A program made the translations under genes and the position numbers. A stretch of DNA of 64,000 nucleotides. Origin: Armatimonadota bacterium. GTDB taxonomy: Bacteria > Armatimonadota > UBA5829 > DTLH01. The stretch covers positions 1-64,000 of the forward strand of contig JBBRAE010000011.1 of the NCBI GenBank assembly GCA_038207085.1, in the 5' to 3' direction. The notes below the pieces were generated by a model. That model saw only the letters and a list, made by a program, of their open reading frames with translations, ran no database searches and was not told the DNA's origin. Below are positions 36,024 to 56,705 of the stretch, piece after piece. Positions within the stretch are counted from its first letter, which is position 1. Each line of letters begins with the position of its first letter.

Positions 36024-37979
36024 CTATCTGAGCTTGATGCCGTTTTGGGCGGCTTTGGCGATTGTCGCTTGAGCCTCCTGTTTGCGGCCCAGCGCCTCAT
36101 AGCACCCAATGAGGTTTACGTACGCCTCCGGGTTCTTTGGGTTCAGGTCTACCGCGGTCAGCAGATGCGTCAATGCCTCGTCATAGCGTTTCATCGACAT
36201 AAGAAGCCCGCCGAGGTTTGAGTGTGCGGTATCGTAGAACGGGTCTATCTCAAGCGCCTGCTGGTAGACGCCGATCGCTTCATCTGGTTTGCCCGCAAGG
36301 GTGAGCGCGTAGCCGAGGTTACTGTAGGCGTTCTTGAAGCTCGGGTTCATATCAATCGCGCGCCGGAACATCTCACAGGCCTTGTCATACTGGCCCTTCT
36401 TGCCGTAGATGATCGCGAGGTTGTTGACTGCCACCGGATCGTTCGTAGATATATTGATTGCCTGCTCATAGTGCTCGAGCGCTTCGTCCAGCCTGCCCGT
36501 TCTTGAGAGAATATTGCCAAGCGCGTTGTGTGCCCGGGTATACCCCGGCTTTATCTCAAGCGCCGCACGCACCGCCTGCTCGGCCTTGCCGTAGTCTTCC
36601 CTCAAGTCATAGTAGCCTCCGAGGTGTGTGTAGGCAAGGTAGTTGTTCGGGTTGACCTGTATCGCGTGCCTAAAGAGCGTCTCGCTTGTCCTCCAGTAGG
36701 TGACCTGCTGATAGGTGAGCGCGAAGCATGCGGCGAGCACGATAATTGCCGCAGGCGCGATCCAGGGCGGAGTAACCGTCACTGTTTCAGTGCCTTTGGC
36801 CCCACGTGCGACTTCTCGTTTGGTGGAGAAAATATCGGGAATGAGCCATGCGATCATAATAAAGAGCCCAACGAGGGGGATGTATGTATAGCGGTCGGCC
36901 ATCGACTGCTCTCCGACCTGCACGAGGCCGATCACAGGGATCAGTGTGAAAAGATACCACACCCAGCCGACTGTGAGATAACCCCGGTTATGCCTGAATC
37001 GGATCACAAACGCCGTAATCGCGACGAGCACCAATAGGCAGATCACGACCGGCTGACTCTGCCCCGGAGGGGACAGTGGATAGAACACGGCAAGCTTCGC
37101 AGGCCAGATCATCTTGCCTATATAGGCCGCGCAGGCGACGATGGAGTTTGCGACGCGCGCAGCCATCGGCAGGTCTTCGAGCTGGTTCACCGCGCCTCCG
37201 CTCCTCTGCGCAAGGAAAGTGATAACGCTCGACGCCACCGTTAGCGCGAAAAGCGGCAGCTTCTCGACGAAAAGCATCGAGAGCGAAGTATTGGGCTTGC
37301 GCTCAGGAGCAAGGCGTCGAAGCGGCCAGAAATCGAGCATCAAAAGCGCAAACGGCAGGGTGACGAGCATCGGTTTTGCAAGCAGGCCAAGCACAAACGA
37401 CGCCACTACGCACGCATAGAAGAGTCGTCTCTTTGAGCCCTGTTCGCTCACGTAGAACGCATAGGCGAGCATAGTCAGCATCCAGAAGAACGTCGAAAGC
37501 ACGTCTTTTCGCTCCGCGACCCACGCCACCGACTCCACATGGAGCGGGTGAAGCGCAAAGAGCGCCGCGACGAAGCCGCTTTTCCAGATCGATCCGGTCA
37601 TTTTCGATAGCGCGAGGAACAACAGCACCGTCGAAAGCACGTGGAAGATAACGTTTGTCGCGTGGTGTCCACCTGCGTTCAGTTTGTAGATGTCGTAGTC
37701 GACGGCGTGCGATATCCACGTCAATGGATGATAGTTCGCGGCATACGCGCGGCCTCCATCTTTCAAGAAGTCAATGGAGAAGCCCCACGTTGCAGCGTTT
37801 GCGACTCCGAGCTTGATGTTCGGGTTGTCTTTGACGTAGTCTGGGTCGTCGTAGAGCACGAAGTCGTTTTGGGTGACGTGCGCGTAGGCGGCAAACGTCG
37901 CAATGATAAGCACGACAAGGATTATCAGTAATGCGCGCTTATCGACCGGTGTCGGCGTCGGGACTTTGGATCTTTTCAT
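36024..37979 (-). CDS. TMTC-like GT-C membrane glycosyltransferase with C-terminal TPRs (paralogue 1)
   Basis: YDD..Y after TM1, NYHPLTWISH, HPLHVESVAWVAERKD, KPMLVTLP, MADRYTYIP, then TPR repeats; ATG 37979 with AGGAG. Confidence 0.85.
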   Translation of the reverse strand: MKRSKVPTPTPVDKRALLIILVVLIIATFAAYAHVTQNDFVLYDDPDYVKDNPNIKLGVANAATWGFSIDFLKDGGRAYAANYHPLTWISHAVDYDIYKLNAGGHHATNVIFHVLSTVLLFLALSKMTGSIWKSGFVAALFALHPLHVESVAWVAERKDVLSTFFWMLTMLAYAFYVSEQGSKRRLFYACVVASFVLGLLAKPMLVTLPFALLMLDFWPLRRLAPERKPNTSLSMLFVEKLPLFALTVASSVITFLAQRSGGAVNQLEDLPMAARVANSIVACAAYIGKMIWPAKLAVFYPLSPPGQSQPVVICLLVLVAITAFVIRFRHNRGYLTVGWVWYLFTLIPVIGLVQVGEQSMADRYTYIPLVGLFIMIAWLIPDIFSTKREVARGAKGTETVTVTPPWIAPAAIIVLAACFALTYQQVTYWRTSETLFRHAIQVNPNNYLAYTHLGGYYDLREDYGKAEQAVRAALEIKPGYTRAHNALGNILSRTGRLDEALEHYEQAINISTNDPVAVNNLAIIYGKKGQYDKACEMFRRAIDMNPSFKNAYSNLGYALTLAGKPDEAIGVYQQALEIDPFYDTAHSNLGGLLMSMKRYDEALTHLLTAVDLNPKNPEAYVNLIGCYEALGRKQEAQATIAKAAQNGIKLR

Positions 37980-37980
37980 T

Positions 37981-39942
37981 CTATCGTTCTCCTGCTGCAC
38001 GAGGCGCGGGGTCTGGAATTCGCTTATCTAATTCTACTATAAGTGCGGGGTGAGGTGAACCACCGAGTTCGCGGACGCGGTGGACTTCCTCCCAGGAACG
38101 GGCATAATCTCCCGTATTATACAGAGCTTCGGCGAGCCGATTATGCGCCTGAACGAACTTCGGGTTATATTGGAGCGCCTTTTCGTAGTATCCTACAGCC
38201 TCATCGTATCTTCCCTGCAGGACGAAGAGCACCCCGATGTTGGTATAGGCTTCAGGAAAATCGGGCTTGATACGAATCGCCGCTTCGAACTCTTTGTTCG
38301 CGCCCGCGATGTCGCCACTTTTTCCGAGAACCATACCGTAGTTGTTGTGCGCGTGCGGGTTCTCGGAGTTCAGCCTGATGGCTTCGAGACAGGCCAAACG
38401 GGCCCCTTTGATATCTCCTGAGACATAGAGCGCGCGCCCGAGGCCGGAGTATGCGAGGTCGCTGTCTTTTCTAATCTTGATGGCCTCACGGTAATGCTTT
38501 TTGGCCTCGCCCGGCTGGCCGGTCTCAAGAAGCGCGTTTGCGTAGTTGCACTGCTGATAGGAGTCGAGCGGATACACCTTGACCGCGCGACCGAGCATCT
38601 CAGCGGCTTCATCGTATCGTCCCATCTCAGCAAACTGGCAGCCGAGGTTGATCGCCGCGAGCCGGTTGTTCATATTGGAGTCAAGCGCGTGCCTGAACAG
38701 GGTTTCGTTGGTCTTCCAGCTAGCCACCTGAACGTGAGTCGTCGGCAGAAGCGCGGCAAGGACGACGATAGCGGGCACCGTAACCGCTGCGGTTCTCACT
38801 TTGGATGAAAGCTTGTCTGCGAGGTCGGCGAGCCCCCATGTGACGGCGATAAAGAGCCCGATCACCGGCACGTAGGTGTAGCGGTCCGCCATCCCCTGCC
38901 ATCCGACCTGGACTATCCCGATCACGGGAACGAGCATCACCAGAAACATCAGCCACCCCATCCCGACGTATGGACGACGCCTCGAAAGGCACACCGAGCC
39001 CGCCGATATTGCCGCAAGGACAGCAGCCGAGGCGATGATCTTCAGTATCGGGATCGATATCCCCGGATGCGGGTAGAAGACGGCGAGGTTGACGGGCCAG
39101 ATCGTCTTTCCAATGTAGGATGCGTAGGCGACGAGCGCGTTATCGATTCTGACCGAAAGCGGATACGTCGCAAGCGCCTGAACCGCGCCGCCCTTGTGCT
39201 GCACGAACATGGTGATGGCCGAACTTGCGGCGACCAGTGCGAAGTACGGCAGCTTTTCAACTACAAGGCGCTTCCATCCCCTAGACGCACGTTCGAGCGG
39301 CCACCAGTCGAGCAGCAGCAGCACAATCGGAAGCGTGACGAGCATAGGTTTCGCCATCAGGCCGAGCACGAAGAGCCCGAGAGTGGCGAGATACCGTTTG
39401 CCGTTGGGTCGCTCGGTGTAGAAAGTGTACGAGATCAGTGTGGCCATCAAAAAGAACGTCGAGAGCACGTCTTTGCGCTCGGAGACCCACGCGACCGACT
39501 CCACATGCATCGGGTGAATGGCAAACAGCGCCGCGACAAACGCGCTTCGCCACACTGCCCCCGTCATCTTCGATAGCGCGAGGAAGAGCAGGATCGCGCT
39601 CAGAATATGTATTGCAACGCTTGTCACGTGGTGTCCGCCCGGGGCGAGCCCGTAGAGCGAAACGTCCGTCATGTGAGATATCCACGTCAGCGGGTGCCAG
39701 TTGGCCGCGTAACCGTCGAAGCTAAACGCCCATTTGACCGCTTCAGGAGTAAGTCCCGAGCTTATGTTGGGGTTGTTCAGCACGTAGTCACCGTCGTCGT
39801 AGCGCACGAACTCGAAGGTGTGACACTGCCAATAGACCCCGAGCGTTCCGACGATCATGAGCAGTATGATGATCGCATGCAGTCGGCTGAAAATTGGATT
39901 ATCCGCCGTTTTTGCCCGGACGGGCTTCAGTTTGGCTTTCAC
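37981..39942 (-). CDS. TMTC-like GT-C + TPR protein (paralogue 2)
   Basis: Same motif set (YDDGDY, NWHPLTWISH, HPMHVESVAWVSERKD, ADRYTY); GTG 39942 with AAGGAG. Confidence 0.85.
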   Translation of the reverse strand: MKAKLKPVRAKTADNPIFSRLHAIIILLMIVGTLGVYWQCHTFEFVRYDDGDYVLNNPNISSGLTPEAVKWAFSFDGYAANWHPLTWISHMTDVSLYGLAPGGHHVTSVAIHILSAILLFLALSKMTGAVWRSAFVAALFAIHPMHVESVAWVSERKDVLSTFFLMATLISYTFYTERPNGKRYLATLGLFVLGLMAKPMLVTLPIVLLLLDWWPLERASRGWKRLVVEKLPYFALVAASSAITMFVQHKGGAVQALATYPLSVRIDNALVAYASYIGKTIWPVNLAVFYPHPGISIPILKIIASAAVLAAISAGSVCLSRRRPYVGMGWLMFLVMLVPVIGIVQVGWQGMADRYTYVPVIGLFIAVTWGLADLADKLSSKVRTAAVTVPAIVVLAALLPTTHVQVASWKTNETLFRHALDSNMNNRLAAINLGCQFAEMGRYDEAAEMLGRAVKVYPLDSYQQCNYANALLETGQPGEAKKHYREAIKIRKDSDLAYSGLGRALYVSGDIKGARLACLEAIRLNSENPHAHNNYGMVLGKSGDIAGANKEFEAAIRIKPDFPEAYTNIGVLFVLQGRYDEAVGYYEKALQYNPKFVQAHNRLAEALYNTGDYARSWEEVHRVRELGGSPHPALIVELDKRIPDPAPRAAGER

Positions 39943-39944
39943 GT

Positions 39945-41882
39945 CTACTCCTTTCTGTCGGTCAGGGCTTTGGCGACTGCTGGGTCGACCGCGCCGCCGT
40001 AGCGCAGGCACTGTTGTAATTCGTTATACGCCGAGGTGCGATCTCCCTCCCTGAATAGCGCCTCCGCGAGATGTCCGTGGGCTGCGGCAAACGTCGGGTC
40101 GACGCGAATAGCCTCAGCGTAGTAGGGAATCGCCTCGGCAAACTTGCCATGAAGCGCAAGCGCGTAGCCGATGTTGTGCGGAGCCTCAGGCATGGTCGGG
40201 TTGAGCACGGCGGCGCGTTTGAACTCGACAACCGCCTCATCAAACCGACCTGCGGATGCGAGAGCGAGGCCGTAGTTGTTCGCCGCGTCAGCGTTCTTGC
40301 CTTCGGTGTCGAGACGAACAGCAGTCTCGCCCGCCCGAATAGCCTCCTCGACCTGACCGTCGCCCGCAAGTGCCCGGGCAAGCGACGCGTAGCCGTCGAT
40401 CGATTTCGGCTCCAGCCTGATCGCCGCCCTGTAGGACGCGATAGCCTCGTCGGCGCGTCCGAGGTCAAAGAGCGTGTTTCCGAGGTTGCGGCGCGCCTGC
40501 GCGTATGTGGGGTCAAACTCTACCGCCTGCCGCAGATACCCTTCGGCCTCCGCAAGCTGGCCGCGCTCCTGGAGAAACGCTCCGAGGTTGTTCAGCGCCC
40601 CAGAGTTCTTTGGATTGACCGAAATAGTGTGATGGAAGAGCGAAACGGTGTCTTTCCAGACCGCAACCTGCTTTGCCGTGACGACCGACAGGGCGATCAA
40701 AACGGCCACTGAAACGGTCGCAAGCGCAGCAGTTTTAGTCGCACTCGGCAACTTGAGTCTATCAAGCGCGTCAGGCACGAGCCATGCGACGATCACAAAG
40801 AGGCCAATCAAGGGGATATAGGTGTAGCGGTCGGCCATCGCCTGCCCGCCTACCTGCACGAGCCCTATCACCGGGGTCAGCGTGCCGACGAACCAGAGCC
40901 ACCCCACGATCAAATACGGTTTGACCTTTGAGTAGCGGACAAACCCCGCAGTCAGCATGGCAAGAATCAACGCAGAGGTGATGACCTGCCAGATTGGGAT
41001 GCCCGCGCCGGGGTGAGGATAGGGTATAGCAAGGCGCGCGGGCCAGATCATCTTTCCGATGTAGCTCACATACACCACGAGCGCGTTTTCGACCCTTACC
41101 GCAGGCGAATAACTCTGGAAGTCCTGAACGGCTCCCGCGCTGTGCTGGGCGATGAACGTAAGAACGCTCGACCCTATCGCAAGCAGCATAAACGGCGTCT
41201 TCTCAATAGCGAGCTTTCCCCAACTCTCCTTGCGACGCAGTGGCCAGTAGTCGAGCATAAGGAGCACGAATGGCAGCGTGACCAGCATCGGTTTTGCAAG
41301 CAGTCCGAGTGCGAAGAACACTACCGCCGCAGCGAACTTTGCCGCACCCGGTTTTGCGACATACCATGCGTAGGAGAGAAGGGTGAGCATTAGGAAAAAC
41401 GTTGAAAGCACGTCTTTACGCTCGGCGGCCCATGCGACAGATTCGACGTGCAACGGGTGAACTGCAAAAAGCGCCGCGACAAAGGCGCTTCGCCAAAGGG
41501 AACCCGTCATCGCCGAAAAGGCGAGGAAAAGCAGCAGCGCGCTTGCTGTGTGCAAGCCAAGACCCATCATGTGGTGCTTCGCCGCGTCGAGTCCAAAGAG
41601 CTTGACGTCGACCATATGGGATATCCACGTCAGCGGGTGCCAGTTCGCGGCGTAGCCGATGTTGAACGCCCACTTGATCGACTCCGGCGTGATTCCCTGC
41701 TGGACGTTAGGGTTTGTCTTTATGTAGGTGAAGTCGTCGTAGCGCACGAAATCGTTATGACGCATCCCCGAGAACGACCCGAGCGTGATGATCGCAAGCG
41801 CCAGGCAGACGGCGAGTTTCATCCATCTGTCGCTGAATCCTGGCCGGTGTGAAGTTGGCTTGCCTACGCGCTTCTTTGCCAT
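39945..41882 (-). CDS. TMTC-like GT-C + TPR protein (paralogue 3)
   Basis: YDDFTY, NWHPLTWISH, HVESVAWAAERKD, ADRYTYIP, TPRs. Confidence 0.85.
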   Translation of the reverse strand: MAKKRVGKPTSHRPGFSDRWMKLAVCLALAIITLGSFSGMRHNDFVRYDDFTYIKTNPNVQQGITPESIKWAFNIGYAANWHPLTWISHMVDVKLFGLDAAKHHMMGLGLHTASALLLFLAFSAMTGSLWRSAFVAALFAVHPLHVESVAWAAERKDVLSTFFLMLTLLSYAWYVAKPGAAKFAAAVVFFALGLLAKPMLVTLPFVLLMLDYWPLRRKESWGKLAIEKTPFMLLAIGSSVLTFIAQHSAGAVQDFQSYSPAVRVENALVVYVSYIGKMIWPARLAIPYPHPGAGIPIWQVITSALILAMLTAGFVRYSKVKPYLIVGWLWFVGTLTPVIGLVQVGGQAMADRYTYIPLIGLFVIVAWLVPDALDRLKLPSATKTAALATVSVAVLIALSVVTAKQVAVWKDTVSLFHHTISVNPKNSGALNNLGAFLQERGQLAEAEGYLRQAVEFDPTYAQARRNLGNTLFDLGRADEAIASYRAAIRLEPKSIDGYASLARALAGDGQVEEAIRAGETAVRLDTEGKNADAANNYGLALASAGRFDEAVVEFKRAAVLNPTMPEAPHNIGYALALHGKFAEAIPYYAEAIRVDPTFAAAHGHLAEALFREGDRTSAYNELQQCLRYGGAVDPAVAKALTDRKE

Positions 41883-41885
41883 ATT

Positions 41886-43805
41886 CTACCTCGCTGGCTC
41901 CGGCATCTTGTGCCTTAACGCCTCTACAAACGGCGCGATCGCGACCCCGCCGTTGTCCTGACACAGGTGAACCTCGCGCCACGCGCCTGCGTAGTCGCCC
42001 TTTTTGTAGAGCTGCACGCCGAGGTTGTTGTGTGCCTTGGGCTCTGCCGGGTCAAGCTCGATTGCCCTCCGATACTCGGCTATGGCCGCTTCAGGGTCGA
42101 CGCTCTCAATGGCGCATGCGAGGTTGTAATGGGGCGCAGCCGTACTTTCGCCGCGGAAAATCGCCTTGCGGAACTGCTCTGCAGCCTCGGCGTTCTTGCG
42201 GTATTTGGCGAGCATCCGACCGAGGTTTATGTGAATCTTTGCGATATTCGCATCCGGTTTGTCCGGCCCGATCTCGGCTTCTTTGACAGCAATTGCTTCG
42301 GTGTACTCTTTGTAAGCGTCTGCCGGTCTGTTCAGCTTCTCAAGCGCGAAAGCGAGGTTGTTGTGCCCCTCGGCCCAGCTGGGTCTGAGCTCGACGACCT
42401 GCCTGTAGTGCTCTTCCGCCTTGTCATACTTCTCAAGCTTCTCGTAGCCTTTGGCAAGGTTGTTGTGCGCGACCGAGTTGTTATCTGGGGCGACCTCAAG
42501 CGCGTGCTGGAAGAGTGATATGCTGTCGTGCCAGTAGCCTGTCTGGATGACGGTCAGCGTCGAAAGCACCGCTAGAACAAAGAGCGCAGGGGCGACCAAC
42601 AGAGTATTCGGCGCGCGCTCCGACTGCTTCTCAGTTCGCGAACGCTTCGGTGCAGGTTCTTTCTTCGTGAAAAGCTCAGGAATGCCCCAGGCGATCATCA
42701 CGAATATGCCAATCAAGGGGATATAAGTATAGCGATCAGCCATTGCCTGCTCGCCTACTTGGATGATGCCGATCACCGGGACTAGCGTCACGAGATACCA
42801 AAGCCACCCAACCGGCAGGTAACTGTGCCGCCTGAGAACGAACGCCGCAATAGAAATTCCAATCAAAAAGACCGCAGATATGAAGACCAATAGCGCCGAT
42901 ATGCCGAGCCCAGGGTGAGGGTAGGGGTTTGCGAAATTGACCGGCCAGAAGGTCTTCAAAATATACGTTCCGTAGGAGAGTATGGCGTTGCCTATCTTGA
43001 CCGCAAAGCCGAGCTTGTCCGCCCCACCCATCGCGCCACCTCTTTGCTGGACCACATACGTGATTATGCACGAAGCGATGGTCATTGAGAAAAGTGGGAG
43101 TTTCTCGGTGATAAGAGCGCTGACTTTGACCTGTCTGATCCTGCCAAGCGGCCACCAGTCAAGCAGCAGCAGCGCGATCGGGAGGGTCACAAGCATCGGT
43201 TTCGCCATAAGCCCGAGCGTGAACGAGACCAGCAAGAGCGTGTAGCGCAGCGCACCCGGACGCTCTGTATACCAGACGTATGCCAGCATCGAGAGCATCC
43301 AGAACATCCCGGAGAGCACGTCTTTTCGCTCGGCGACCCACGCGACCGACTCCACATGGAACGGATGAAGCGCAAAAAGCGACGCAACAAACGCGCTCTT
43401 CCACGGGGAGTTGGTCATCCTCGTAAGAGCAAAGAAAAGCAGCAGTGTCGTTGCAATATGTATCAGCACGTTCGAGAGGTGATGGAGCCACGGGTTTTGC
43501 GCGCCTTCGGGAAGCGTGGGGACGCCCACAGATGGCTTCACCCTGGCCCCGATTAGCCGGTCGATGTTCGCATCTAGCATATGGCTCATCCATGTGACGG
43601 GGTGCCAGTTTGCCGCGTAGCCGTTCATCTTGAAGGCGAAGGCTATCCCATCAAGCGTGATGCCCTTCAGCACGTGCGGGTTCTGGGTGATGTATTGCTC
43701 GTCATCATACTCCAGAAACTGCCCACGAAGCGACGGCGCGTAGACTGCGAGCGTAACGACGGCGAGCAGTGCGGCGATTATAAGATTTGTGCGTGTCTTC
43801 ATCAT
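41886..43805 (-). CDS. TMTC-like GT-C + TPR protein (paralogue 4)
   Basis: YDDEQY, NWHPVTWMSH, HVESVAWVAERKD, ADRYTYIP, TPRs; ~20-aa insertion in the first external loop. Confidence 0.85.
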   Translation of the reverse strand: MMKTRTNLIIAALLAVVTLAVYAPSLRGQFLEYDDEQYITQNPHVLKGITLDGIAFAFKMNGYAANWHPVTWMSHMLDANIDRLIGARVKPSVGVPTLPEGAQNPWLHHLSNVLIHIATTLLLFFALTRMTNSPWKSAFVASLFALHPFHVESVAWVAERKDVLSGMFWMLSMLAYVWYTERPGALRYTLLLVSFTLGLMAKPMLVTLPIALLLLDWWPLGRIRQVKVSALITEKLPLFSMTIASCIITYVVQQRGGAMGGADKLGFAVKIGNAILSYGTYILKTFWPVNFANPYPHPGLGISALLVFISAVFLIGISIAAFVLRRHSYLPVGWLWYLVTLVPVIGIIQVGEQAMADRYTYIPLIGIFVMIAWGIPELFTKKEPAPKRSRTEKQSERAPNTLLVAPALFVLAVLSTLTVIQTGYWHDSISLFQHALEVAPDNNSVAHNNLAKGYEKLEKYDKAEEHYRQVVELRPSWAEGHNNLAFALEKLNRPADAYKEYTEAIAVKEAEIGPDKPDANIAKIHINLGRMLAKYRKNAEAAEQFRKAIFRGESTAAPHYNLACAIESVDPEAAIAEYRRAIELDPAEPKAHNNLGVQLYKKGDYAGAWREVHLCQDNGGVAIAPFVEALRHKMPEPAR

Positions 43806-45893: not shown

Positions 45894-45933
45894 TGTTCTC
45901 CGGATCGACGGCGCTATCCGCGCCGTCTCTTAG

Positions 45934-46006: not shown

Positions 46007-46019
46007 TTAGAGGCTGGCG

Positions 46020-47838: not shown

Positions 47839-49350
47839 CTACTTTGCCGCTCCACTGTTGATGGTATTGATCCAGTCCTTGACCCCGGGGATATCCAGGT
47901 CGAACCCGTCACTAACAGCTCGATCAAGCTCTCTCTTGGCGGCGACGGGGTCACCTGTGACATAGAGCGCGCACGCGAGGTTGAAGCGGGCGACTGTCCA
48001 CTTAGGTTTCAGCTCAAGCGCCTTCCGGATGTGGGGGATCGCTTCTGCGAAGCGATTGTCATTGGCGTAACCCATTCCAAGCTCGTGTTCGGCGAGGTAG
48101 TTGTTCGGGACGGCTGCCATCGCGTGCAGGAAGAGCGTTTCGCTGTCCTTCCAGACCTTGACCTGAGCAAAAGAAAGCACGGAGAGCGTGACAAGAATTA
48201 TCGCAGAGATGGGGAGAAGTACCTTCGTCCGATTTTGAATCCACGCCTCGGGCACAGCCCAGACAATCGCGACAAACACCCCGATCAGCGGGATGTAGGT
48301 GTAGCGGTCCGCGTAAGCCTGCTCACCGACCTGCACCAGGCCAATCACGGGTATGAGCGAGACAATATACCATAGCCAGCCGCTCGCGATATATGGCTTA
48401 GTGCGTCGTATCACGACGGCAAGTGCGGTCATTGCGACGATAAACCCGCCGCTTGTCACGAGTTGCCATGTGGGCCAGCCGCCGACCGGATGCGGGTAAA
48501 GCGCGGCGAGCCTGAGCGGCCAGAACATCTTCCAGATATATGCGGCGAACGCCACTCCCGCGGTCAGTATGCGCTCGCCAATCGAATACGCGCCAAGGGA
48601 TTGCACAGCTCCACCCGCGTTTTGGGCGAAGTAAGTCGCGACACATGAGCCAATCGCAAGAGCAAACAGCGGGATTTTCTCACGAATAAGCCTTCCCCAG
48701 CTTTCGCTTCTCCCGAGCGGCCAGCGGTCGATTACAAGAAGCAGTATCGGCAGCGTGACAAGCATCGGTTTGGCGAGAAGCCCCACGGTGAAAAGCGACG
48801 CCGTCAATACATAGTCAAAAGGCCTGCGCGACCCGACATAACGGTGGTACGCAAGCATCGATAACAGCAGAAAGAACGCGCTAAGCACGTCTTTACGCTC
48901 GGAAACCCACGCCACCGACTCCACGTGCAGTGGATGAAGCGCGAAAAGCGCCGCCACAACTGCGCTTCGCCAGAAACTCCCGGTAAGTCTCGTAAGAAGT
49001 ACAAACAGCAGCAGGATATTCACGAGGTGAAGCAGGATATTCGTGAGGTGGTGCATCCCCGCGTTGCTCCCGTAGAGCTGGCAGTCGACCATGTGAGATA
49101 TCCATGTCAGCGGGTGCCAGTTTGCGGCATGGGACGATGTGAACGCCCATATGACGTTATCTAGGGTAACCCCGCCGGTGACGTGTTCGTTCAGGGTGAC
49201 GTAGTGTTCGTCGTCGTGATACATTTGGAAACCAAACGCCGTCGCCTGCCAGTAGACGGCAATCGTCAGGATGAGTATCGCCGCAATGACTGCGACCTTC
49301 AGTCCCATGCCCGTGTTGTCTTTGGGCGAAAATACTGGTTTCTTCGTCAT
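47839..49350 (-). CDS. TMTC-like GT-C protein with short TPR tail (paralogue 7)
   Basis: HDDEHY, NWHPLTWISH, HVESVAWVSERKD, ADRYTYIP; only ~2 TPR units. Confidence 0.83.
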   Translation of the reverse strand: MTKKPVFSPKDNTGMGLKVAVIAAILILTIAVYWQATAFGFQMYHDDEHYVTLNEHVTGGVTLDNVIWAFTSSHAANWHPLTWISHMVDCQLYGSNAGMHHLTNILLHLVNILLLFVLLTRLTGSFWRSAVVAALFALHPLHVESVAWVSERKDVLSAFFLLLSMLAYHRYVGSRRPFDYVLTASLFTVGLLAKPMLVTLPILLLVIDRWPLGRSESWGRLIREKIPLFALAIGSCVATYFAQNAGGAVQSLGAYSIGERILTAGVAFAAYIWKMFWPLRLAALYPHPVGGWPTWQLVTSGGFIVAMTALAVVIRRTKPYIASGWLWYIVSLIPVIGLVQVGEQAYADRYTYIPLIGVFVAIVWAVPEAWIQNRTKVLLPISAIILVTLSVLSFAQVKVWKDSETLFLHAMAAVPNNYLAEHELGMGYANDNRFAEAIPHIRKALELKPKWTVARFNLACALYVTGDPVAAKRELDRAVSDGFDLDIPGVKDWINTINSGAAK

Positions 49351-49383: not shown

Positions 49384-50142
49384 CTACCTCTTTTTTGCCG
49401 GGAGGTATTTGGGATGAGAAATTCCCCACCTGGCAAGTCGGTAGGCAAGCGCCGTAGAAAGACATCCAAACCCGTATTTGACGCTCCTGCGGAAGTTGAT
49501 CGATGACGCCTCAGGCGAATATCGTGCGGGACAGCTTACTTCGCCGATCCTGTAGTCCTGCCAGATCACCTGGGATAGCATTTGGTTGTCGAACACGAAG
49601 TCGTCGGAATTGAGCTTGAGCGGCAGGTTTTCAAGCACCTCGCGTGAAAACGCCCGGTAGCCGGAATGATATTCGGAGAGCTTCGCACCCATCATCAGGT
49701 TTCCAAATAGCGTCAGGAACCGGTTGGAGATGTAGCGCCACGCCGGCATTCCGTCTTTCATGGCGCGGCCTCCGAGGATTCGCGAGGCGACGACGCAGTC
49801 GTAGAGCCCGTTTCCGATGAGCGCGGCAATCGCAGGCACCAGCTTCGGGGTGTACTGATAATCCGGGTGGACCATGATGACGATATCCCCGCCGTGCTCC
49901 ACTGCGAGTCTGTAGCAGCTCTTTTGATTGCCGCCGTAGCCTTTGTTCTCAGCGTGGGTATGCACGACGGTGTTCGGCAGCATCCTGGCGACAGCCGAAG
50001 TGTTGTCGTGGCTTGCGTCATCGACGACAATCACGAGGTCGACAATTCCCTCCTGATCCATGACTTCGTTATATGTCTGAACGAGGGTGTTCTCCGCGTT
50101 GTATGCGGGCATTACAACGACGACCTTCTTATCTTTGAACAT
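49384..50142 (-). CDS. GT2 glycosyltransferase, DPM1/polyprenyl-phosphate sugar synthase-like
   Basis: VVVVMPAYN, VDDASHD, NKGYGGNQK, HPDYQY, SEYHSGYRAF, FVFD; soluble, no TM block. Confidence 0.85.
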   Translation of the reverse strand: MFKDKKVVVVMPAYNAENTLVQTYNEVMDQEGIVDLVIVVDDASHDNTSAVARMLPNTVVHTHAENKGYGGNQKSCYRLAVEHGGDIVIMVHPDYQYTPKLVPAIAALIGNGLYDCVVASRILGGRAMKDGMPAWRYISNRFLTLFGNLMMGAKLSEYHSGYRAFSREVLENLPLKLNSDDFVFDNQMLSQVIWQDYRIGEVSCPARYSPEASSINFRRSVKYGFGCLSTALAYRLARWGISHPKYLPAKKR

Positions 50143-50148: not shown

Positions 50149-51822
50149 CTAGTTAGCCTCTATCTTTCTTTCGAAAATGTATATGCCATTGTCAGGCTTT
50201 ATGGGATAGGCGCGAGCTTTGTCGCCCCATATATATTCGGTTGTAAACGAGCTTGGCCCAAGGCCTCCGTAGTAAGTCATTACGTAGCCCATTTGAGTGT
50301 AGTTCTTGGGGATATATTCACCGAGCGCCCAGTTCAGTATCGTCATATCGGAGCCCTGCCTCCAAAGCCACGACGTGCTGATGCTGACGAAGACTATATA
50401 CTTCGGTTTGGACTTCTCGATCTCCGCGATCATTTCCTTCTGCATCTTGCCGGCGAGCTTCTGTCGCTCCATCAGGGGATAGGTATATATGTAGCCGGTC
50501 GCGCTACGCCTGTCTGCAAAGAACGGCAATTGCGGCTCGCTTCCAAGGACGGCGATAGTATCGGTTGGCTTGCTGTGAGCCTTAAGATACTTCGCGATCT
50601 CCTGAGTCTCTATCCATGGGTTGCCTCCGTAGATCGATCGTGTCGCCTGATCCATTGGGAGCCTGAGCAGAAACTCGGAGTGTGCGTTTATCGTGAAGAG
50701 CAGCCCCACGACGAAGACGGCGGCAGGGATATAGGAGACTGCCGCGATTCCAGTGAGCCTTTTAAGAATATTTCGAGCGGAGCCGACAAACACGCCGATC
50801 AAGAGCGCAAGCGAGGGCATCCAAGTTACGTAGTAGTGCTGGCGGAAGTAGAACCCCGGGACAATCGTTGCAAGCGAGAAGAGGAAGAACCCCGTCATCC
50901 AGAGTGCGCGCTTGCGGGTTGCTCCGTCAACCCACACAAGCACCAGCCCGAGACCTGCGAGCAGCCAGAGGACTACGCTCGGACCTGCCATCTCAGATGT
51001 GTTTTTCAAAAACACACCCAGCGCCTGGCCTACGGGTATCTCGCCGACATAGTTTCTGGCATACTCAAACGTCCACAGCCAGAACCTACCGAAGACTCCC
51101 GAGGCCGCCATAAGAGCGCAGATCAGAATATAGGGCAGCGCAGAGCAAGCAATAAACACACATGCTCGTCCTGTGATCGAAATAGCTCTAATCGGCCTCT
51201 CGCGAAGATCGTTTGCCAGGAGATATATGAGCACGAACGGGACGAAGAACATCCCCTGCTGCTTCATCGTAAGCGCGATACCTACAAGCACTCCTGACAG
51301 CGCGACGTGGAGGAGTTTCTTCGACTCCACAGCTTTCAGTGCAAAGAGAATACCGGCAAGCGCGGGTAGGACTACAAAATGCGTCGCGTGCGCCTGAGTG
51401 CCGAAGATGTTCTGGTTGATCGTGAGAAACCCGAACGCTGCAGCGGAGACTAGCCCGACCGTCGAGTCAAAGAGCCTGCGGGCGATCAGATACAGAAGCA
51501 CCATCGATGCCGCGTTTACTACAAGCAGCCCGAGATGTATCCCGACCACACTCTGCCCGAAAACGCCCATCACAAGCGCGTATGCGTAGTAGATGCCGGG
51601 GAGCTTCATATTGTAGGCGAGTTTGAACGGCGGGACGCCCTTCAGGATCAACTGGCCGACGTAGGCATACTCACCTTCGTCGCGCTCGATCGGTATGCCG
51701 AGCATCCTAATACGGATTGCCGCGTAAACGAGCACGATGACGCCAAGTATCGCCCACGACACCCACGACGGGGTCTGTCCAGCTTCGATCTGTGGCTTGT
51801 CCAGTTTCCTACGCTTGCCCAT
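50149..51822 (-). CDS. ArnT/PMT-like (GT-C) membrane glycosyltransferase
   Basis: ERDEGEY after TM1, P...Y..K.PG, MKQQG, FRQHYY; polytopic with a C-terminal soluble domain. Confidence 0.8.
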   Translation of the reverse strand: MGKRRKLDKPQIEAGQTPSWVSWAILGVIVLVYAAIRIRMLGIPIERDEGEYAYVGQLILKGVPPFKLAYNMKLPGIYYAYALVMGVFGQSVVGIHLGLLVVNAASMVLLYLIARRLFDSTVGLVSAAAFGFLTINQNIFGTQAHATHFVVLPALAGILFALKAVESKKLLHVALSGVLVGIALTMKQQGMFFVPFVLIYLLANDLRERPIRAISITGRACVFIACSALPYILICALMAASGVFGRFWLWTFEYARNYVGEIPVGQALGVFLKNTSEMAGPSVVLWLLAGLGLVLVWVDGATRKRALWMTGFFLFSLATIVPGFYFRQHYYVTWMPSLALLIGVFVGSARNILKRLTGIAAVSYIPAAVFVVGLLFTINAHSEFLLRLPMDQATRSIYGGNPWIETQEIAKYLKAHSKPTDTIAVLGSEPQLPFFADRRSATGYIYTYPLMERQKLAGKMQKEMIAEIEKSKPKYIVFVSISTSWLWRQGSDMTILNWALGEYIPKNYTQMGYVMTYYGGLGPSSFTTEYIWGDKARAYPIKPDNGIYIFERKIEAN

Positions 51823-51843
51823 AAGTGCAGATTCTCCTGTCGG

Positions 51844-53418
51844 TTACAAATTGTGGAACAGGTTAAAGGCGCTTGCGAAGACCCCGCGAGACATAAGTGC
51901 TTCGGAGGTGGTCACAATGACTATTATGAGCGCAAGCGCGATTCCTCTGTAGCGCTTGAGCTTGAAAACTCCAAGAACTGAGCCGAGGCCCATAAGATAC
52001 ATCGCGATAAACGGCACCAGCGCGCCCGATATCAGCCTGCCCGCGGCAAAAAACGGGAACTCTCTTGAAGGCGCAAACCAGTTACCGAAGTCATAGCGCA
52101 TCGACATAACAATCAGCATTCCGATGGAGGCGAGAAAGGCCACAGCCGAGAGTATGTCGGCAAACATAACCATTTTCTCACGTTTCTTGCGATATGACCA
52201 GATGCTTACAAGAAACGTAAGCACAAATAACGAAGAGCTGACAGCGTAAAACTTGTCCATTCCGAGGCTGGCCATCGGTTTTTGCTGCCAAATATACTCA
52301 CCTCGCCACAGGCTCGCCAGCGTCGCCTGCAGAAAGGCCCCAAACCCACCGGCGGTAAAAACGGGGTGGTCCCACATCTCCCAAAACGACTTGGTGCGCC
52401 ATCCGACGGCCTCGGCATATTGCCCGGTCAGGGTGGGCGACCCGCTGAAGTGCATGTTATACGCGAACCAGATGACGATTGGCAGCGCCGCAAAGAGCAG
52501 AAGAGTCCCCTGTTTCCAGATGACGCTTCGAAGTTCGCCCGCGCGCAAACTCTGGTAGAGCTTCAGTGCTACGACCGCCCCAAGTATTAACAAAATCGGA
52601 GCGTTTGTCAGTTTGGTGAGAAGCGCGCATGCGGCAAAGAGACCTGTAGCTGCGTGGAACAGATGGCTCCTGGATTTGTCTTTGTAGATCGCGATCAGGT
52701 TGTAGAAAGCAGCGCCAAACAGAAGTGCGGAGGGCACGTCGCTTTCGATTCCGTAGTACATGTCCTGCGGCAGGAAGGCGAGGAGTGCCGGGACTCCGAA
52801 GTGGAGGTAGTGGCGCTTGGGGTAGGTGCGCTTCATAAATACGTAAGAAAACCACAGCATTAGCCCGTAGAACACCACGTTCATCATTCGGATCCAGTAC
52901 AGGCTCTGAATGCCACTGAGTCCGATCGCTTTACCGAAGTTGTACCACTGTCCCCCGATCAGATAATAGAACGGCGGTTGCACCGACTCGTGGTTCGCTT
53001 GTATCTGGAACTGCCGGTTTACTTCCTGCACGTAAGCCAGTCGCTCGGGATGTTTGAACTTCCAAGCCGGGGTTTTGATTCTGATTTCTTTTTCAGCATC
53101 GTTGACCATCTGGGGCGTGAAGAAGAACTCCCAAGACCCGCTGGTAGAGATTTTTTTGATAGCTTCTTTGGAGTAAGCTTCGAGTCCGTGCGGAATGTCA
53201 AGCTTTGCGTAGCGGCAGACGATGTCGAAATGCGCCTGCTCATCTACATTGTTGAAGAACGGAAACGCGGCACAAAAGAACAGAACGCGCAGTGTCCCAA
53301 TCGCGCACAGCATGAGCACAATTGCGAGTTCATACCGGAGCCCAAAGTTAAATAGCACTGCAAATATGCCTTTGGGCTCCTTCACGACCTGAGTTATCGA
53401 AGGCTTGTGGTGTTTCAT
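51844..53418 (-). CDS. GT-C fold membrane protein, DUF2142-like putative glycosyltransferase
   Basis: DEQAHF after TM1, HESVQPPFYY, LTKLT, GRLI; polytopic. Confidence 0.7.
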   Translation of the reverse strand: MKHHKPSITQVVKEPKGIFAVLFNFGLRYELAIVLMLCAIGTLRVLFFCAAFPFFNNVDEQAHFDIVCRYAKLDIPHGLEAYSKEAIKKISTSGSWEFFFTPQMVNDAEKEIRIKTPAWKFKHPERLAYVQEVNRQFQIQANHESVQPPFYYLIGGQWYNFGKAIGLSGIQSLYWIRMMNVVFYGLMLWFSYVFMKRTYPKRHYLHFGVPALLAFLPQDMYYGIESDVPSALLFGAAFYNLIAIYKDKSRSHLFHAATGLFAACALLTKLTNAPILLILGAVVALKLYQSLRAGELRSVIWKQGTLLLFAALPIVIWFAYNMHFSGSPTLTGQYAEAVGWRTKSFWEMWDHPVFTAGGFGAFLQATLASLWRGEYIWQQKPMASLGMDKFYAVSSSLFVLTFLVSIWSYRKKREKMVMFADILSAVAFLASIGMLIVMSMRYDFGNWFAPSREFPFFAAGRLISGALVPFIAMYLMGLGSVLGVFKLKRYRGIALALIIVIVTTSEALMSRGVFASAFNLFHNL

Positions 53419-53436
53419 TTAGGGCTAATCACGGAC

Positions 53437-55038
53437 CTATTCATCTATTCGTTTCAATATTGCAACAGGAGCGATCCTCGGAGGGTCAATAGGCTCGGTC
53501 CGCCAGAGGTGCTCATCGGGAGTTTCTCTATTCTGGAATGGAATATCGGGATAAGGAATGTCTATTTGGCGGTATTTCCCTGTCTGCAATAGACCGTAGA
53601 TCATACTGCGAACATCTTGCTCTTGAGATGATATCATGTACCGCCTCATCACTATCCAATCAGCCTCACTTGCCGGGGTCAAGTCCTCACCGGTCAGTCC
53701 GCCAATGATACGAAGATTCGTATAATACTTTAGTGGAAGATCTTCGTAAGTGACGGTCACGACATCGCCCTTCTTGGCGTGCTCTTTGAGATACTTAACC
53801 GTACCTTCCACTGGTCCGACATAGTCGTGGGTGATCTCATAGACATAGGTGAATATGTCGTTCTTCTGCCCTTCGCCGCCGTTCATCTTGGCGAGCGGGC
53901 TCCAGAGCGCTACTGCAACAAGGGCTGCGATGCCCACGGACCAGTGGATTCTGTCGAGCAAAAGTGCCGTGATAAGGGATCCGATTGGGAGGATTGGTGC
54001 GAGGTATCGGAAAAATGGAGCAGGTGAGGTCGCAGACAGCGTAAATATCATCACAAGTGATGATATTATGAGCAATCCAACGCTGCTGGCGATACGCGCA
54101 TCGACCCTTGGTAGTCGTCCCTGCCGTAACAGACTCCACGCCACAGCAAGCACCGGAAGAACTAGGAGATACGGATTGAGAATGTGAGTCCATATCTGGT
54201 GTAGGAACACGCCAAAGAAGTCCGCGATGTTGCTGCCGGTTGAGTATCTCTTACCATAGGACATCTGAGAAAGCCATACAATCCAAGGCAGGTTGATGGC
54301 TACCACAGCTCCGCACGAGGTGAGGATGTCTTTAATCCTGTCGCGATGAAATATTAGAGCGTGAATTATAAGAGAAAATACAAGCGTGATGCAGTAAAGA
54401 TAGAACGTCTGAAAGAGCAGCGTTCCAGCGACCACCAGTAGCAACCACGAGCTCCGTTTTCGGTCGATGAGCCTCAGATACGCGTGTATCGTCAGTATCG
54501 TAAAGAATGCAGCCGGGCTATAGTATCTGCACTGGCGGGCAAGAAGCAGGAAGGGCACCGAAAGCGTCAACGCCCCTGCGGCGAATAGACCCGCCTTCCA
54601 ACTACGCCACATCTCAGCCGCGGTGAAATATATCAGCACAATCGTCGCAAGTCCAAAGATCGCAAAAGGCAGGCGCGCTGCAAGTGTGCTCGACTTGCCA
54701 AGGACCAGGAAGAACGGCACGATCACATAAAACTGCAGCCACGTGTGCCATTTCCAGATGTAGTTCTTGCCGTACTCGGCTCCGGCTTCTTGCGAGAAAT
54801 AGTTTTGTCCGTCGTAGCCGTGCGGTGTGCCATACTGGAGAATCGTGCGTGCGACAAGCGCGGTCTGTGCTTCGTCCTGCCAAAGCATCTGTTGGCCGAC
54901 TTTAGCGAACATCAAGACCGCGGCAATCAGGAACACGGCGAACGCAGCGATTGCATGCTTGGATCGCAGCCAACCTTTCCATGAGCCGTCCCATCGGGCG
55001 ATCTCAGGTGTCTGCTTCGCCTGTTTCCTTGATTTCAT
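53437..55038 (-). CDS. ArnT/PMT-like (GT-C) membrane glycosyltransferase
   Basis: LWQDEAQTA, AARLPFA, RQCRYY, RYLAP; paralogue of the next gene. Confidence 0.8.
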   Translation of the reverse strand: MKSRKQAKQTPEIARWDGSWKGWLRSKHAIAAFAVFLIAAVLMFAKVGQQMLWQDEAQTALVARTILQYGTPHGYDGQNYFSQEAGAEYGKNYIWKWHTWLQFYVIVPFFLVLGKSSTLAARLPFAIFGLATIVLIYFTAAEMWRSWKAGLFAAGALTLSVPFLLLARQCRYYSPAAFFTILTIHAYLRLIDRKRSSWLLLVVAGTLLFQTFYLYCITLVFSLIIHALIFHRDRIKDILTSCGAVVAINLPWIVWLSQMSYGKRYSTGSNIADFFGVFLHQIWTHILNPYLLVLPVLAVAWSLLRQGRLPRVDARIASSVGLLIISSLVMIFTLSATSPAPFFRYLAPILPIGSLITALLLDRIHWSVGIAALVAVALWSPLAKMNGGEGQKNDIFTYVYEITHDYVGPVEGTVKYLKEHAKKGDVVTVTYEDLPLKYYTNLRIIGGLTGEDLTPASEADWIVMRRYMISSQEQDVRSMIYGLLQTGKYRQIDIPYPDIPFQNRETPDEHLWRTEPIDPPRIAPVAILKRIDE

Positions 55039-56705
55039 TTCGTGTTCCTCTCAGTTGCTTTGATTCGCTTGTAGATAACGACTTTCGGCTCGCCTGACGG
55101 GCTCTTCCACATATGATCGTCGGGGTCCTCGCGGTTCTCAAAGAAGGTGTCGGTGCAGTCGAGTTTGATCGGCTGATAGTCCTTCGCGTTGATCTCCGTG
55201 GCCAGGAAGTCGAACACAGGCTTTTCATAGGGCCCGACCGGGCGATTTCGGATGATTATCCACTCCGCGTGCTTCGCATCAGACAGGTCCTCGCCCGTGA
55301 GCCCACCGAGTACTCTCAAGTTGGTGTAGTACTTCACTGTGAGGTCTTCATAGGTGATGAGCACGACGTCTTTTGGATTTGCGTGGGCGTTCAGATACCT
55401 TACCACGCCCTCGACAGGACCGTTGTAGTCGTGAGTGATCTCATAGAGATACGTTCCGATGTCGTTTTTGCGCGTATACTCCTCGGCTCCAACCTGCCGT
55501 GCCACCGGGCTCGCGAGGAGCATCACAGCAAAAATGATCGAGGCCGCAACCACGTGTACGCGATCGAGAATCAGTGCAATAACGACACACGCAAGCGGTA
55601 TAAGTGGGGCAAGGGTTCGTAGATAGGCAACCGGCGTGCTCATTGCGAAAGCCAGGCATGTGATGACAGAGAACACAACGAGCAAGATTGTGTAGCTGGT
55701 GGCTCTTCTGTCCAGTCGTACCCAGTGCTTCTGCTTCATGAGCCTTGCTACATACACGCCAAACGGGATTACTAGTAGGACAGGGTTGAGAACGTGCTTG
55801 GCTAGCAAGTTCCCATAAAAGAGATTGGACTCAACGAAATGCTTGAAAGAAGTGTAGTCTCCGTAGGCGTCGCCCACATCTATGCTCATGAAAAATCGGA
55901 GAGGAAGAATATTCGCAACGGTTACCGCAACTGATGCAGCGATAATCTTACTTGCTCTGGCTCGATGAAAGACAAGGGCGTGAGCAAAGACTGTAGCAAA
56001 TAGGGCTGCAGCGTAACCGTAGTGAGTGTGCAGGAGTAACAGTGACGAGATCACATATAGCACGAGCGACCACCGCTTCCGGTCGAGGTAACGCGCATAG
56101 GCATAGAACGCAAGGACAGTGAAGAACATCGCAGGGGCGTAGTATCTGCACTGGCGTGACAACAAGAGAAATGGTACGCTTGTGGCAAGAAGCAGTCCAG
56201 CGAAAACAGCGGCTTTGTGGCTTCTCCACAGAGTGAGCGCCAACAGATAAGTGAATACAACTGTCCCAAGGCCAAACATAGCAAACGGCAGCCTGGCGGC
56301 AAGCGTGGGGTCCTCTACCAGAGCGAGGAACGGCGCTGTGGCATAGAACATTACCCAAGTGTGCCATTTCCAGATATAGTTCGTGCCATATTCCCTTCCA
56401 GCGTCCTGAGAGAAGAAGTTTCTGCCGTCGTAGCCGTGGGGAATGCCTTGGTGCAAGATAGTGCGTGAGACTAGTGCAGTCTGTGCTTCATCCTGCCAAA
56501 GGTAGATGTTTCCGAGGTTAGCGAGCAACAGGATTGATGCAAGGACAGTGATTGCGATCAGTGGCGCGTAGAACCTGAGCCATCCTCCACGTCCAGGGGC
56601 TGGCACGGGCTCGGGTCTCTCAACCCAGGAAGATTTTACGCTGTGAGGACTCTTGTGCTTGTGGCTAGACATGACCTTAGCGGGAGCGTTTAGACACTCT
56701 CCCAT
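55035..56705 (-). CDS. ArnT/PMT-like (GT-C) membrane glycosyltransferase
   Basis: LWQDEAQTA, AARLPFA, RQCRYY; start uncertain (ATG 56705 or 56672). Confidence 0.8.
   Translation of the reverse strand: MGECLNAPAKVMSSHKHKSPHSVKSSWVERPEPVPAPGRGGWLRFYAPLIAITVLASILLLANLGNIYLWQDEAQTALVSRTILHQGIPHGYDGRNFFSQDAGREYGTNYIWKWHTWVMFYATAPFLALVEDPTLAARLPFAMFGLGTVVFTYLLALTLWRSHKAAVFAGLLLATSVPFLLLSRQCRYYAPAMFFTVLAFYAYARYLDRKRWSLVLYVISSLLLLHTHYGYAAALFATVFAHALVFHRARASKIIAASVAVTVANILPLRFFMSIDVGDAYGDYTSFKHFVESNLFYGNLLAKHVLNPVLLVIPFGVYVARLMKQKHWVRLDRRATSYTILLVVFSVITCLAFAMSTPVAYLRTLAPLIPLACVVIALILDRVHVVAASIIFAVMLLASPVARQVGAEEYTRKNDIGTYLYEITHDYNGPVEGVVRYLNAHANPKDVVLITYEDLTVKYYTNLRVLGGLTGEDLSDAKHAEWIIIRNRPVGPYEKPVFDFLATEINAKDYQPIKLDCTDTFFENREDPDDHMWKSPSGEPKVVIYKRIKATERNTK

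Follow-up and report, generated by a model that had tools for sequence, protein, structure and literature searches.

The window analysed here is a stretch of 64,000 nucleotides (nt), positions 1 to 64,000 of contig JBBRAE010000011.1 (our contig C11), from the metagenome-assembled genome of an Armatimonadota bacterium, an uncultured sediment organism (assembly GCA_038207085.1; 3.35 Mb in 83 contigs). Within this window, positions 36024-56705 are filled by exactly twelve long open reading frames (ORFs), all on the minus strand, which we named g1 to g12 in transcription order (Table 1). They encode two paralogues of the PMT/PMT_2 type, a DUF2142 protein, a PMT_2 protein, a small glycosyltransferase of family GT2, and seven paralogous GT-C glycosyltransferases carrying tetratricopeptide repeats (TPRs), which we call TMTC-like. 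We propose that the twelve genes are an operon for extracytoplasmic (periplasmic) glycosylation from a polyprenyl-phosphate sugar, and we give this reading a probability of roughly 60%. It builds on the gene order, the protein families, the predicted folds and motifs, and the linkage of the GT2, the TMTC-like genes and g4 in other genomes.

Table 1. Features of the glycosyltransferase locus, in window coordinates
Feature	Position	Strand	Description	Basis
Promoter-like site	56766..56794	-	Upstream of g1: TTGACG, 17 nt, TAGATT	Read by eye, consensus resemblance only
g1	55035..56705	-	556-amino-acid polytopic membrane protein, PMT/PMT_2 type (GT-C), WQDE after TM1	Pfam PMT 27.9 bits (cut-off 22.7)
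g2	53437..55038	-	533-amino-acid g1 paralogue, PMT_2, WQDE	Pfam PMT_2 37.7 bits (cut-off 26.1)
g3	51844..53418	-	524-amino-acid DUF2142 membrane protein, NVDE after TM1	Pfam DUF2142 52.5 bits (cut-off 30.1)
g4	50149..51822	-	557-amino-acid PMT_2-type GT-C, ERDEGEY after TM1, C-terminal soluble domain	Pfam PMT_2 62.2 bits
g5	49384..50142	-	252-amino-acid GT2 without transmembrane helix, probable polyprenyl-phosphate monosaccharide synthase	Pfam Glycos_transf_2 78.5 bits
g6	47839..49350	-	503-amino-acid TMTC-like GT-C, short TPR tail (one or two repeats)	Pfam, alignment
g7	46020..47837	-	TMTC-like GT-C+TPR, 605 amino acids from ATG 47837	Longest ORF starts at 47963, overlapping g6
Palindromic repeat	45928..46012	-	85-nt REPIN-like repeat in the g7-g8 gap, the sole long gap of the operon	Genome repeat search
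g8	43812..45893	-	693-amino-acid TMTC-like GT-C+TPR	Pfam, alignment, tree
g9	41886..43805	-	639-amino-acid TMTC-like GT-C+TPR, 19-residue insertion in first periplasmic loop	Pfam, alignment
g10	39945..41882	-	645-amino-acid TMTC-like GT-C+TPR, the modelled paralogue	AlphaFold (AF2) model, fold search
g11	37981..39942	-	TMTC-like GT-C+TPR, 653 amino acids from GTG 39942	Pfam, alignment
g12	36024..37979	-	TMTC-like GT-C+TPR, 651 amino acids from ATG 37979	Pfam, alignment
GC-rich hairpin	35990..36013	-	Possible operon end, 10 nt past the g12 stop	Sequence read by eye

The layout of the twelve genes fits a single transcription unit, on which they would be co-transcribed. From g1 to g12 the intergenic gaps measure -4, 18, 21, 6, 33, 1, 126, 6, 3, 2 and 1 nt, so that all are at most 33 nt long except that between g7 and g8. 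These values use starts taken from the translations, three of which (g7, g11 and g12; Table 1) were shifted downstream to avoid overlap with the preceding gene. No terminator was detected between the genes from g1 through g5 in a terminator scan that stopped at 55600. When the ends were read by eye, a GGAGGA ribosome-binding site was found before the g1 ATG at 56705; the hairpin past g12 has no U-tract on the minus strand, and the enolase gene further downstream has its own TGgTATAAT-like -10 element. The 126-nt gap is occupied by the palindromic repeat, which consists of two hairpins within inverted ends and has 107 copies in the genome at no more than 12 substitutions. Three of these lie in the window, the other two at 34283-34367 (+), between pyk and eno, and at 56828-56912 (-), between g1 and the divergent gene, where the copy overlaps the nominal start of a 261-amino-acid ORF at 56900. 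A sequence-only reading of this DNA had described twelve co-oriented, mostly tightly spaced genes free of wzx/wzy, ABC exporter and nucleotide-sugar genes. The ORF list and gap lengths agree with the first part of that description, and a family scan of the twelve genes agrees with the second; in the Pfam scan of the cluster and its flanks no polysaccharide assembly or export gene was found at all.

The largest group in the locus consists of the TMTC-like proteins g6-g12, so called after metazoan TMTC1-4, the protein O-mannosyltransferases of cadherins (CAZy GT105). All seven show strong Pfam TPR matches in the C-terminal third, and g6, with about 81 residues beyond its last transmembrane helix, hence keeps one or two repeats. 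Their matches to PMT_2 are weak (g8 25.3-26.5, g7 20.1 and g9 18.8 bits; none for g6, g10, g11 and g12). Searches against PDB sequences returned nothing relevant for the TMTC-like profile (one chance match, E 0.34) and TPR proteins only for full-length g12. The AF2 model of g10, built on an alignment of 104 homologues, was obtained with a predicted local distance difference test score (pLDDT) of 94.7 and a predicted template modelling score (pTM) of 0.92, and it contains 11 transmembrane helices followed by about 8 TPR hairpins. In the wide search with VIA-align, residues 15-425 of this model matched Pmt2 (6p2r_B) with Z 19.4 and a root-mean-square deviation of 4.2 over 344 residues, followed by AglB (3waj, Z 19.0), Pmt4 (9e61, 18.9), STT3B (6s7t, 17.5), ArnT (5f15, 17.1), PglB (5ogl, 17.1) and ALG12 (9s6t, 16.6). 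Seven solved GT-C enzymes were thus aligned at Z 16.6-19.4 over 310-344 residues, where the chance level for helical models reaches a Z of about 13-14. Foldseek with the full g10 model against the PDB gave TPR proteins only, and the GT-C matches came from VIA-align. The fold evidence is direct for g10, and the seven proteins are linked through their membrane domains, which are 46-52% identical to that of g7, the reference row of the alignment. By predicted fold, the TMTC-like proteins are GT-C enzymes. Across the 104 homologues the DD, RxD, K..T and DRxxY motifs are invariant or nearly so.

The seven paralogues differ mainly in their C-terminal parts, since the mean pairwise identity among them is 50% for the membrane domains versus 32% for the TPR parts. 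The genome holds nine copies of the family, seven of which sit in the array. In a FastTree phylogeny of 114 membrane domains, whose deep branches are weakly supported, the placement of the nine genome copies needs five label changes, and the well-supported branches force at least two. For example, g8 is sister to a foreign database protein (P0003, support 99), g6 falls together with Armatimonadota relatives and the contig C35 copy, and g9-g12 group with Pirellulales sequences. The array is therefore not a recent amplification. Judged from these sequences, the TMTC-like paralogues are old and not monophyletic, and diverged copies have been kept side by side, which fits specialisation. Another copy outside the array lies on contig C8 (C8:31039-33018, in the locus C8:23001-42400). 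It is preceded by genes for two multihaem cytochromes and an NHL-repeat propeller, and followed by genes for a 1304-amino-acid all-TPR protein and a VIT-VWA protein; the 85-nt repeat, too, has a copy just upstream of it (C8:30666-30750).

The single GT2 of the locus, g5, is a probable donor synthase. Its best PDB sequence match is DPMS (5mlz, 5.2e-11), followed by ArnC. In NCBIfam the best matches are AglJ, haloarchaeal dolichyl-phosphate hexose transferase and PpgS, none of which comes near its cut-off (the best with 65.8 bits versus 325), and PgfS is matched weakly (2.7e-10). An AF2 model built from 46 orthologues reached a pLDDT of 91.1, and among the Foldseek matches listed at ranks 1-15 all are ArnC, DPMS or GtrB (E 7.6e-14 to 3.8e-11, TM-score about 0.70). 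By both sequence and fold, the GT-A catalytic domain of g5 is thus closest to the DPMS/GtrB/ArnC-type subgroup. We consider that g5 most likely makes a polyprenyl-phosphate monosaccharide.

The four remaining proteins, g1-g4, have no TPR and are assigned to the GT-C type by Pfam matches above cut-off. The paralogues g1 and g2 share 46% identity, and g1 ends in a C-terminal soluble domain of about 150 amino acids. For g3, the nearest Atlas clusters are of DUF2142/PMT_2 type. The g4 family could be aligned with the TMTC-like membrane-domain profile by hhalign (88.8% probability, E 2.5e-6) in an alignment that places the DE of g4 on the DD of the TMTC-like proteins; PDB sequence searches with g4 and with g2 gave nothing relevant. 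None of the twelve proteins has a Pfam match to the MIR domain, and the PMT/PMT_2 matches in g1, g2 and g4 span the N-terminal membrane part only, so the combination of membrane domain and lumenal MIR domain that marks the PMT family (GT39) does not occur here. An acidic pair directly follows TM1 in each of the eleven membrane proteins (WQDE in g1 and g2, VDE in g3, ERDE in g4, DD in g6-g12). The sequence-only reading had made both this point and the division into one GT2 and eleven GT-C enzymes; motif inspection bears out the former, while the Pfam matches, the g10 fold and the sequence and fold matches of g5 sustain the latter. PMT and ArnT, with which it had suggested comparing the predicted structures, are both among the fold matches of g10 given above.

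The linkage of these genes was compared in three sets, namely 40 relatives, the best 80 GT2 loci across phyla, and an even sample of 151 Armatimonadota genomes. A g5 orthologue is present in 19 of the 40 relatives, and all 19 also have TMTC-like genes; none of the 11 relatives without a TMTC-like match has a g5 orthologue. Close linkage, with one to four TMTC-like genes no more than a few kb from the GT2, is the arrangement in 11 of the 19; direct inspection of 10 loci showed it in 7. Orthologues of g5 with 61-72% identity occur in Planctomycetota, Verrucomicrobiota, Desulfobacterota, Acidobacteriota, Hydrogenedentota, Nitrospirota and others. Across the 80 loci, a TMTC-like gene is held by 29 and is directly adjacent to the GT2 on the same strand in 19, and a g4-like gene directly adjoins the GT2 in 12. 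The density of TMTC-like genes is 39 per Mb around the GT2 versus 2.7 per Mb in this genome. The 151-genome sample contains the GT2 in 21 genomes, TMTC-like genes in 11 and both in 7, and all five genomes with a g4 orthologue have the other two as well. That the GT2, the TMTC-like genes and g4 are functionally tied is supported by their conserved adjacency and co-occurrence. One relative has its GT2 orthologue (G035:C5:2294140-2294894) split over three frames, either frameshifted or misassembled, beside TMTC-like genes that are fragmented too.

The first three genes of the operon behave differently in these comparisons. Only 2 of the 40 relatives have g1/g2-like genes and 2 have g3-like genes, and none of either kind was found in the 10 loci inspected around the relatives' GT2 orthologues. 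The conserved core is the GT2 with TMTC-like genes, sometimes with g4, and the twelve-gene layout is a local assembly, because g1-g3 are rarely found or linked elsewhere; g1-g3 are accordingly viewed as accessory GT-C-type proteins added locally, and g4 as part of the conserved set. These data raise the alternative that separate modules have been juxtaposed, in which only g4, g5 and the TMTC-like genes cooperate, and g1-g3, brought in by gene transfer, use donors made by other GT2s for unrelated targets. The GC content (0.52-0.54 over g1-g4, positions 50001-56000, versus 0.56-0.60 over g5-g12, positions 36001-50000) fits a separate origin of the first four genes. Besides g5, 6 more GT2 matches occur in the genome, which also contains a second locus combining GtrA, PMT_2 and GT2 genes, and in genome G033 a g2-like gene adjoins a different GT2 that is only 31% identical to g5. 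However, g1-g5 are spaced by -4 to 21 nt with no detected terminator between them, and two Phycisphaerales loci (L069 and L078) repeat the order g2-like, g4-like, GT2, TMTC-like. We regard juxtaposed modules as possible, on the unlikely side. The sequence-only reading had let a single donor feed all the transferases, and adjacency and co-occurrence support a tie of the GT2 to the TMTC-like enzymes and g4; one donor for all eleven is not supported, in view of the rarity of g1-g3, the genomes that have the GT2 without TMTC-like genes, and the other GT2/GT-C loci of this genome. Its appeal to synteny fared likewise, as the linkage of GT2 and TMTC-like genes recurs in relatives and that of g1-g3 does not.

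The pathway that we propose has three steps. First, g5, as a small peripheral GT2 working at the cytoplasmic face of the membrane, would take a monosaccharide from a nucleotide sugar and attach it to polyprenyl (undecaprenyl) phosphate. Second, a flippase would bring the lipid-linked sugar to the periplasmic face. Third, the GT-C enzymes, with the acidic DD/DE pair predicted to face the periplasm, would pass the sugar on to acceptors. Among them, the seven TMTC-like ones would share a conserved catalytic membrane domain, and their periplasmic TPR domains, which are far more diverged, most likely select different acceptors. Secreted or envelope proteins are the probable acceptors if TMTC1-4 and TfpW are a guide, and protein acceptors are also favoured by analogy with the PMTs and with streptococcal GtrB/PgtC2 and PgfS/PgfM1.

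Several observations weigh against this proposal. For the pathway as a whole, no flippase gene of the GtrA, SMR or MATE type was found among the twelve genes or their flanks, and the genome's only GtrA-like gene belongs to a different GT-C/GT2 locus, on contig C19. For protein acceptors, a crude ORF scan of the genome for segments with at least 17 Ser/Thr in 30 residues gave 35 ORFs of 100-287 amino acids, most resembling off-frame artefacts, and thus no convincing Ser/Thr-rich secreted acceptor; TPR domains, moreover, bind polysaccharides in other systems too. For the pairing of the enzymes, 51 of the 80 GT2 loci have no TMTC-like gene and have varied neighbours, 10 of the 40 relatives have TMTC-like genes and no g5 orthologue, and in the 151 Armatimonadota genomes the GT2 occurs without a TMTC-like gene (E<=1e-60) in 14 of 21 and TMTC-like genes occur without the GT2 in 4, so the pairing is facultative. 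For g5, the DxD motif departs from the canonical form, with HPD opposite the DAD of DPMS and hence His in place of the first Asp; the second Asp and the following Gln are kept, and HPDYQY is invariant in the 46 orthologues. The g5 model also has no transmembrane helix, and no partner of the GacJ/DUF2304 type was found in the genome; g5 thus has neither the C-terminal transmembrane helices nor the dedicated partner by which such enzymes are anchored to the membrane, and hydrophobic-moment analysis of its helices for an amphipathic helix gave moderate values only.

The likeness to TMTC enzymes is itself partial. Table 4 of PMC7801869, the part of that paper on which this comparison draws, gives the TMTC motifs M1-M7 as DD, SHKSYRP, RxD, KE(T/Q)xxT, DW, PxxP and ERxxY, of which M1, M3, M4 and M7 are read as donor and metal sites. 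We compared the invariant columns of the 104 homologues with this table by eye. In the bacterial family M1, M3, M7 (as DRxxY) and the K and T of M4 are present, and M2 is left only as a WHP remnant. As further counts against the proposal, Pro replaces the metal-binding Glu of M4, this by-eye comparison revealed no M5 (DW), and DUF1736, the Pfam signature of the TM7-TM8 loop, has no match in the seven membrane domains at E<=10 or in the full proteins at E<=0.01. Because of these mismatches we call the proteins TMTC-like and not TMTC members.

Glycan or lipid acceptors are unlikely but form a serious rival to protein acceptors. The chemistry would be the same, and the sugar would be moved to lipopolysaccharide, another envelope polysaccharide, exopolysaccharide or a glycolipid, in a manner resembling Gtr-type O-antigen modification, ArnT, or wall-polymer decoration of the GacL/YfhO type, with the TPRs holding the polymer or an export machine. 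According to the part of PMC11127046 used here, most characterised bacterial GT-C enzymes that use lipid-phosphate sugars act on glycans or lipid A, and the portion of PMC9746298 consulted places DUF2142 proteins in cell-wall polysaccharide loci. ArnT is among the fold matches of g10, and the lack of obvious Ser/Thr-rich proteins in the crude genome scan points in the same direction. In contrast, the closest characterised enzymes with 11 transmembrane helices and C-terminal TPRs glycosylate proteins, namely TMTC1-4 (PMC7801869) and TfpW (10.1101/2020.04.19.049825), as far as the sections of these sources at hand describe them. The best fold matches of g10 are PMTs, and the locus is without polysaccharide assembly or export genes.

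It is quite improbable that g5 is a soluble GT-A, be it a GpgS-type enzyme with a small phosphorylated acceptor or a GT2 that builds glycans, and that the GT-C donors come from elsewhere: the missing transmembrane helix, GpgS structures next in the fold ranking (6e-11, TM-score 0.61-0.70), an NCBIfam GpgS match (6.4e-10, residues 4-106), the failure to reach any curated equivalog cut-off in NCBIfam, and the many loci in which the GT2 stands alone or beside unrelated genes speak for it, but polyprenyl-phosphate enzymes take all the top places in both the sequence and the fold search, with alignments spanning nearly the whole protein, the GT2 adjoins or co-occurs with GT-C genes far above their genomic density, and synthases of this kind without transmembrane helices exist (DPM1, GacI, the catalytic domain of Ppm1).

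Returning to the proposed periplasmic glycosylation operon, a bolder version can be formulated as one joint claim, which we hold to be doubtful. In it the operon would be a complete bacterial counterpart of the animal TMTC1-4 pathway, in which a dedicated DPM1-like synthase without transmembrane helix is the source of one lipid-linked sugar, each of the seven TPR-guided O-glycosyltransferases has its own class of envelope proteins as acceptors, and one of the TPR-less GT-C-like proteins g1, g2 or g4 is the flippase, working like archaeal Agl23; the relatives of the operon may then mark a prokaryotic origin of the TMTC pathway. Agl23 is an archaeal GT-C-like protein which, in the part of PMC11182771 used here, translocates lipid-linked oligosaccharide as purified protein. 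The g1 and g2 proteins match the Agl23 family (TIGR03663) weakly, with 26-30 bits (g1 at 30) and a cut-off of 126, which is only a lead for flipping by a TPR-less GT-C-like protein. Another flippase candidate, the 261-amino-acid polytopic membrane protein at 56900-57685 (+), was rejected, as it is absent from the relatives' loci and abuts pfkB without a gap. It has no Pfam match, and the Atlas clusters closest to it consist of uncharacterised Armatimonadota proteins, 10% of which carry DUF624 in one cluster. The locus C19:1-16700 contains, besides its GtrA-family gene, genes for a 437-amino-acid PMT_2 protein, a Wzy_C protein, a HAD hydrolase, a GT2, and a flavin oxidoreductase with a weak UDP-galactopyranose mutase match.

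The surroundings of the operon give some information on the host. One flank carries the enolase and pyruvate kinase genes, and the other a membrane protein gene, a pfkB kinase gene and alaS. All named matches to the alanyl-tRNA synthetase at 63-72% identity come from Armatimonadota. A 9.9-kb stretch of the cluster was located in two DNA runs from a single sediment study, and no RNA run was listed for it. Elsewhere in the window, an RND efflux operon includes an outer-membrane efflux protein (OEP family), and from this operon with its outer-membrane factor the host envelope is probably diderm. A tRNA-Sec gene at 19633-19725 (+) (Rfam, 69.8 bits) precedes a class-V aminotransferase-family gene (19939-21018) by about 210 nt, and its presence makes use of selenocysteine by the organism probable. 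The RNA polymerase beta subunit (4386-9044, +) is unusually long with 1552 amino acids, and its Rpb2_1 match is stretched over residues 59-622, which indicates a large insertion.

The combination of a lipid-phosphate sugar and a GT-C transferase is already known from Gtr, Ppm1/Pmt, GtrB/PgtC2 and TfpW, and the present locus is an unusual variant of it, with one donor synthase, seven TPR-bearing and four other GT-C genes in one putative operon. The TMTC-like family is large, with 104,868 members at E<=0.001 and 31,656 at E<=1e-30 in a profile search of 1.84 billion cluster representatives; a literature search that did not cover subscription journals returned no study characterising a bacterial TMTC-like enzyme besides TfpW. 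The locus and its relatives give this family a likely donor enzyme and suggest that divergence of the TPRs partitions the acceptors. If the acceptors are proteins, TMTC-type protein O-glycosylation would be widespread in environmental bacteria of many phyla, and the animal TMTC pathway would have a clear prokaryotic relative.

Compared with metazoan TMTC1-4, the proteins of the array share several features with the enzymes as described in the excerpt of PMC7801869 used here. First, the topology predicted for the bacterial proteins is the same: the N-terminus is inside, there are 11 transmembrane helices with a GT-C core, and the TPR domain at the C-terminus lies on the non-cytoplasmic side. 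Second, both have DD in the first loop, the FAVHP.H segment of TM3 (quoted there for TMTC3), RxD, K....T and (E/D)RxxY. Third, each organism has several paralogues. The bacterial proteins differ in being predicted to be periplasmic, so that the donor lipid would be undecaprenyl and not dolichyl phosphate, and in being encoded in tandem beside a donor synthase gene.

TfpW, the pilin D-arabinofuranosyltransferase of Pseudomonas aeruginosa group IV strains, offers the bacterial comparison (bioRxiv 10.1101/2020.04.19.049825, in the part available to us). [quoted passage not shown] In that account, however, tfpW lies directly downstream of the pilin gene, whereas no pilin family was found among the window proteins scanned, and its donor comes from a phosphoribosyl pyrophosphate-dependent pathway and not from a GT2. 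We liken TfpW to the TMTC-like proteins by design and not by sequence.

The other comparisons concern the division of labour between synthase and transferase. Actinobacterial Ppm1/Pmt follows the same logic of protein O-glycosylation by a GT2 and a GT-C. The streptococcal GtrB/PgtC2 and PgfS/PgfM1 pairs do so too, a lipid-phosphate sugar made by a GT-A enzyme being moved by a GT-C to Ser/Thr of extracytoplasmic proteins (PMC12041528, in the part used here). Unlike our locus, these streptococcal and actinobacterial systems employ one or two transferases of YfhO or PMT type without TPR, and the host here is probably diderm. The three-component systems GtrA/GtrB/Gtr* and ArnC/ArnEF/ArnT and the GT136 pentofuranose systems likewise pair a polyprenyl-phosphate sugar synthase with an extracytoplasmic GT-C, as the consulted part of PMC11127046 describes. 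Structurally g5 matches both GtrB and ArnC; it is without their transmembrane helices, and its 252 amino acids compare with 301-318 in the matched targets. The three-component systems have a dedicated flippase gene, which this locus does not, and they work with one GT-C, whereas eleven GT-C genes, seven of them with TPRs, are assembled here.

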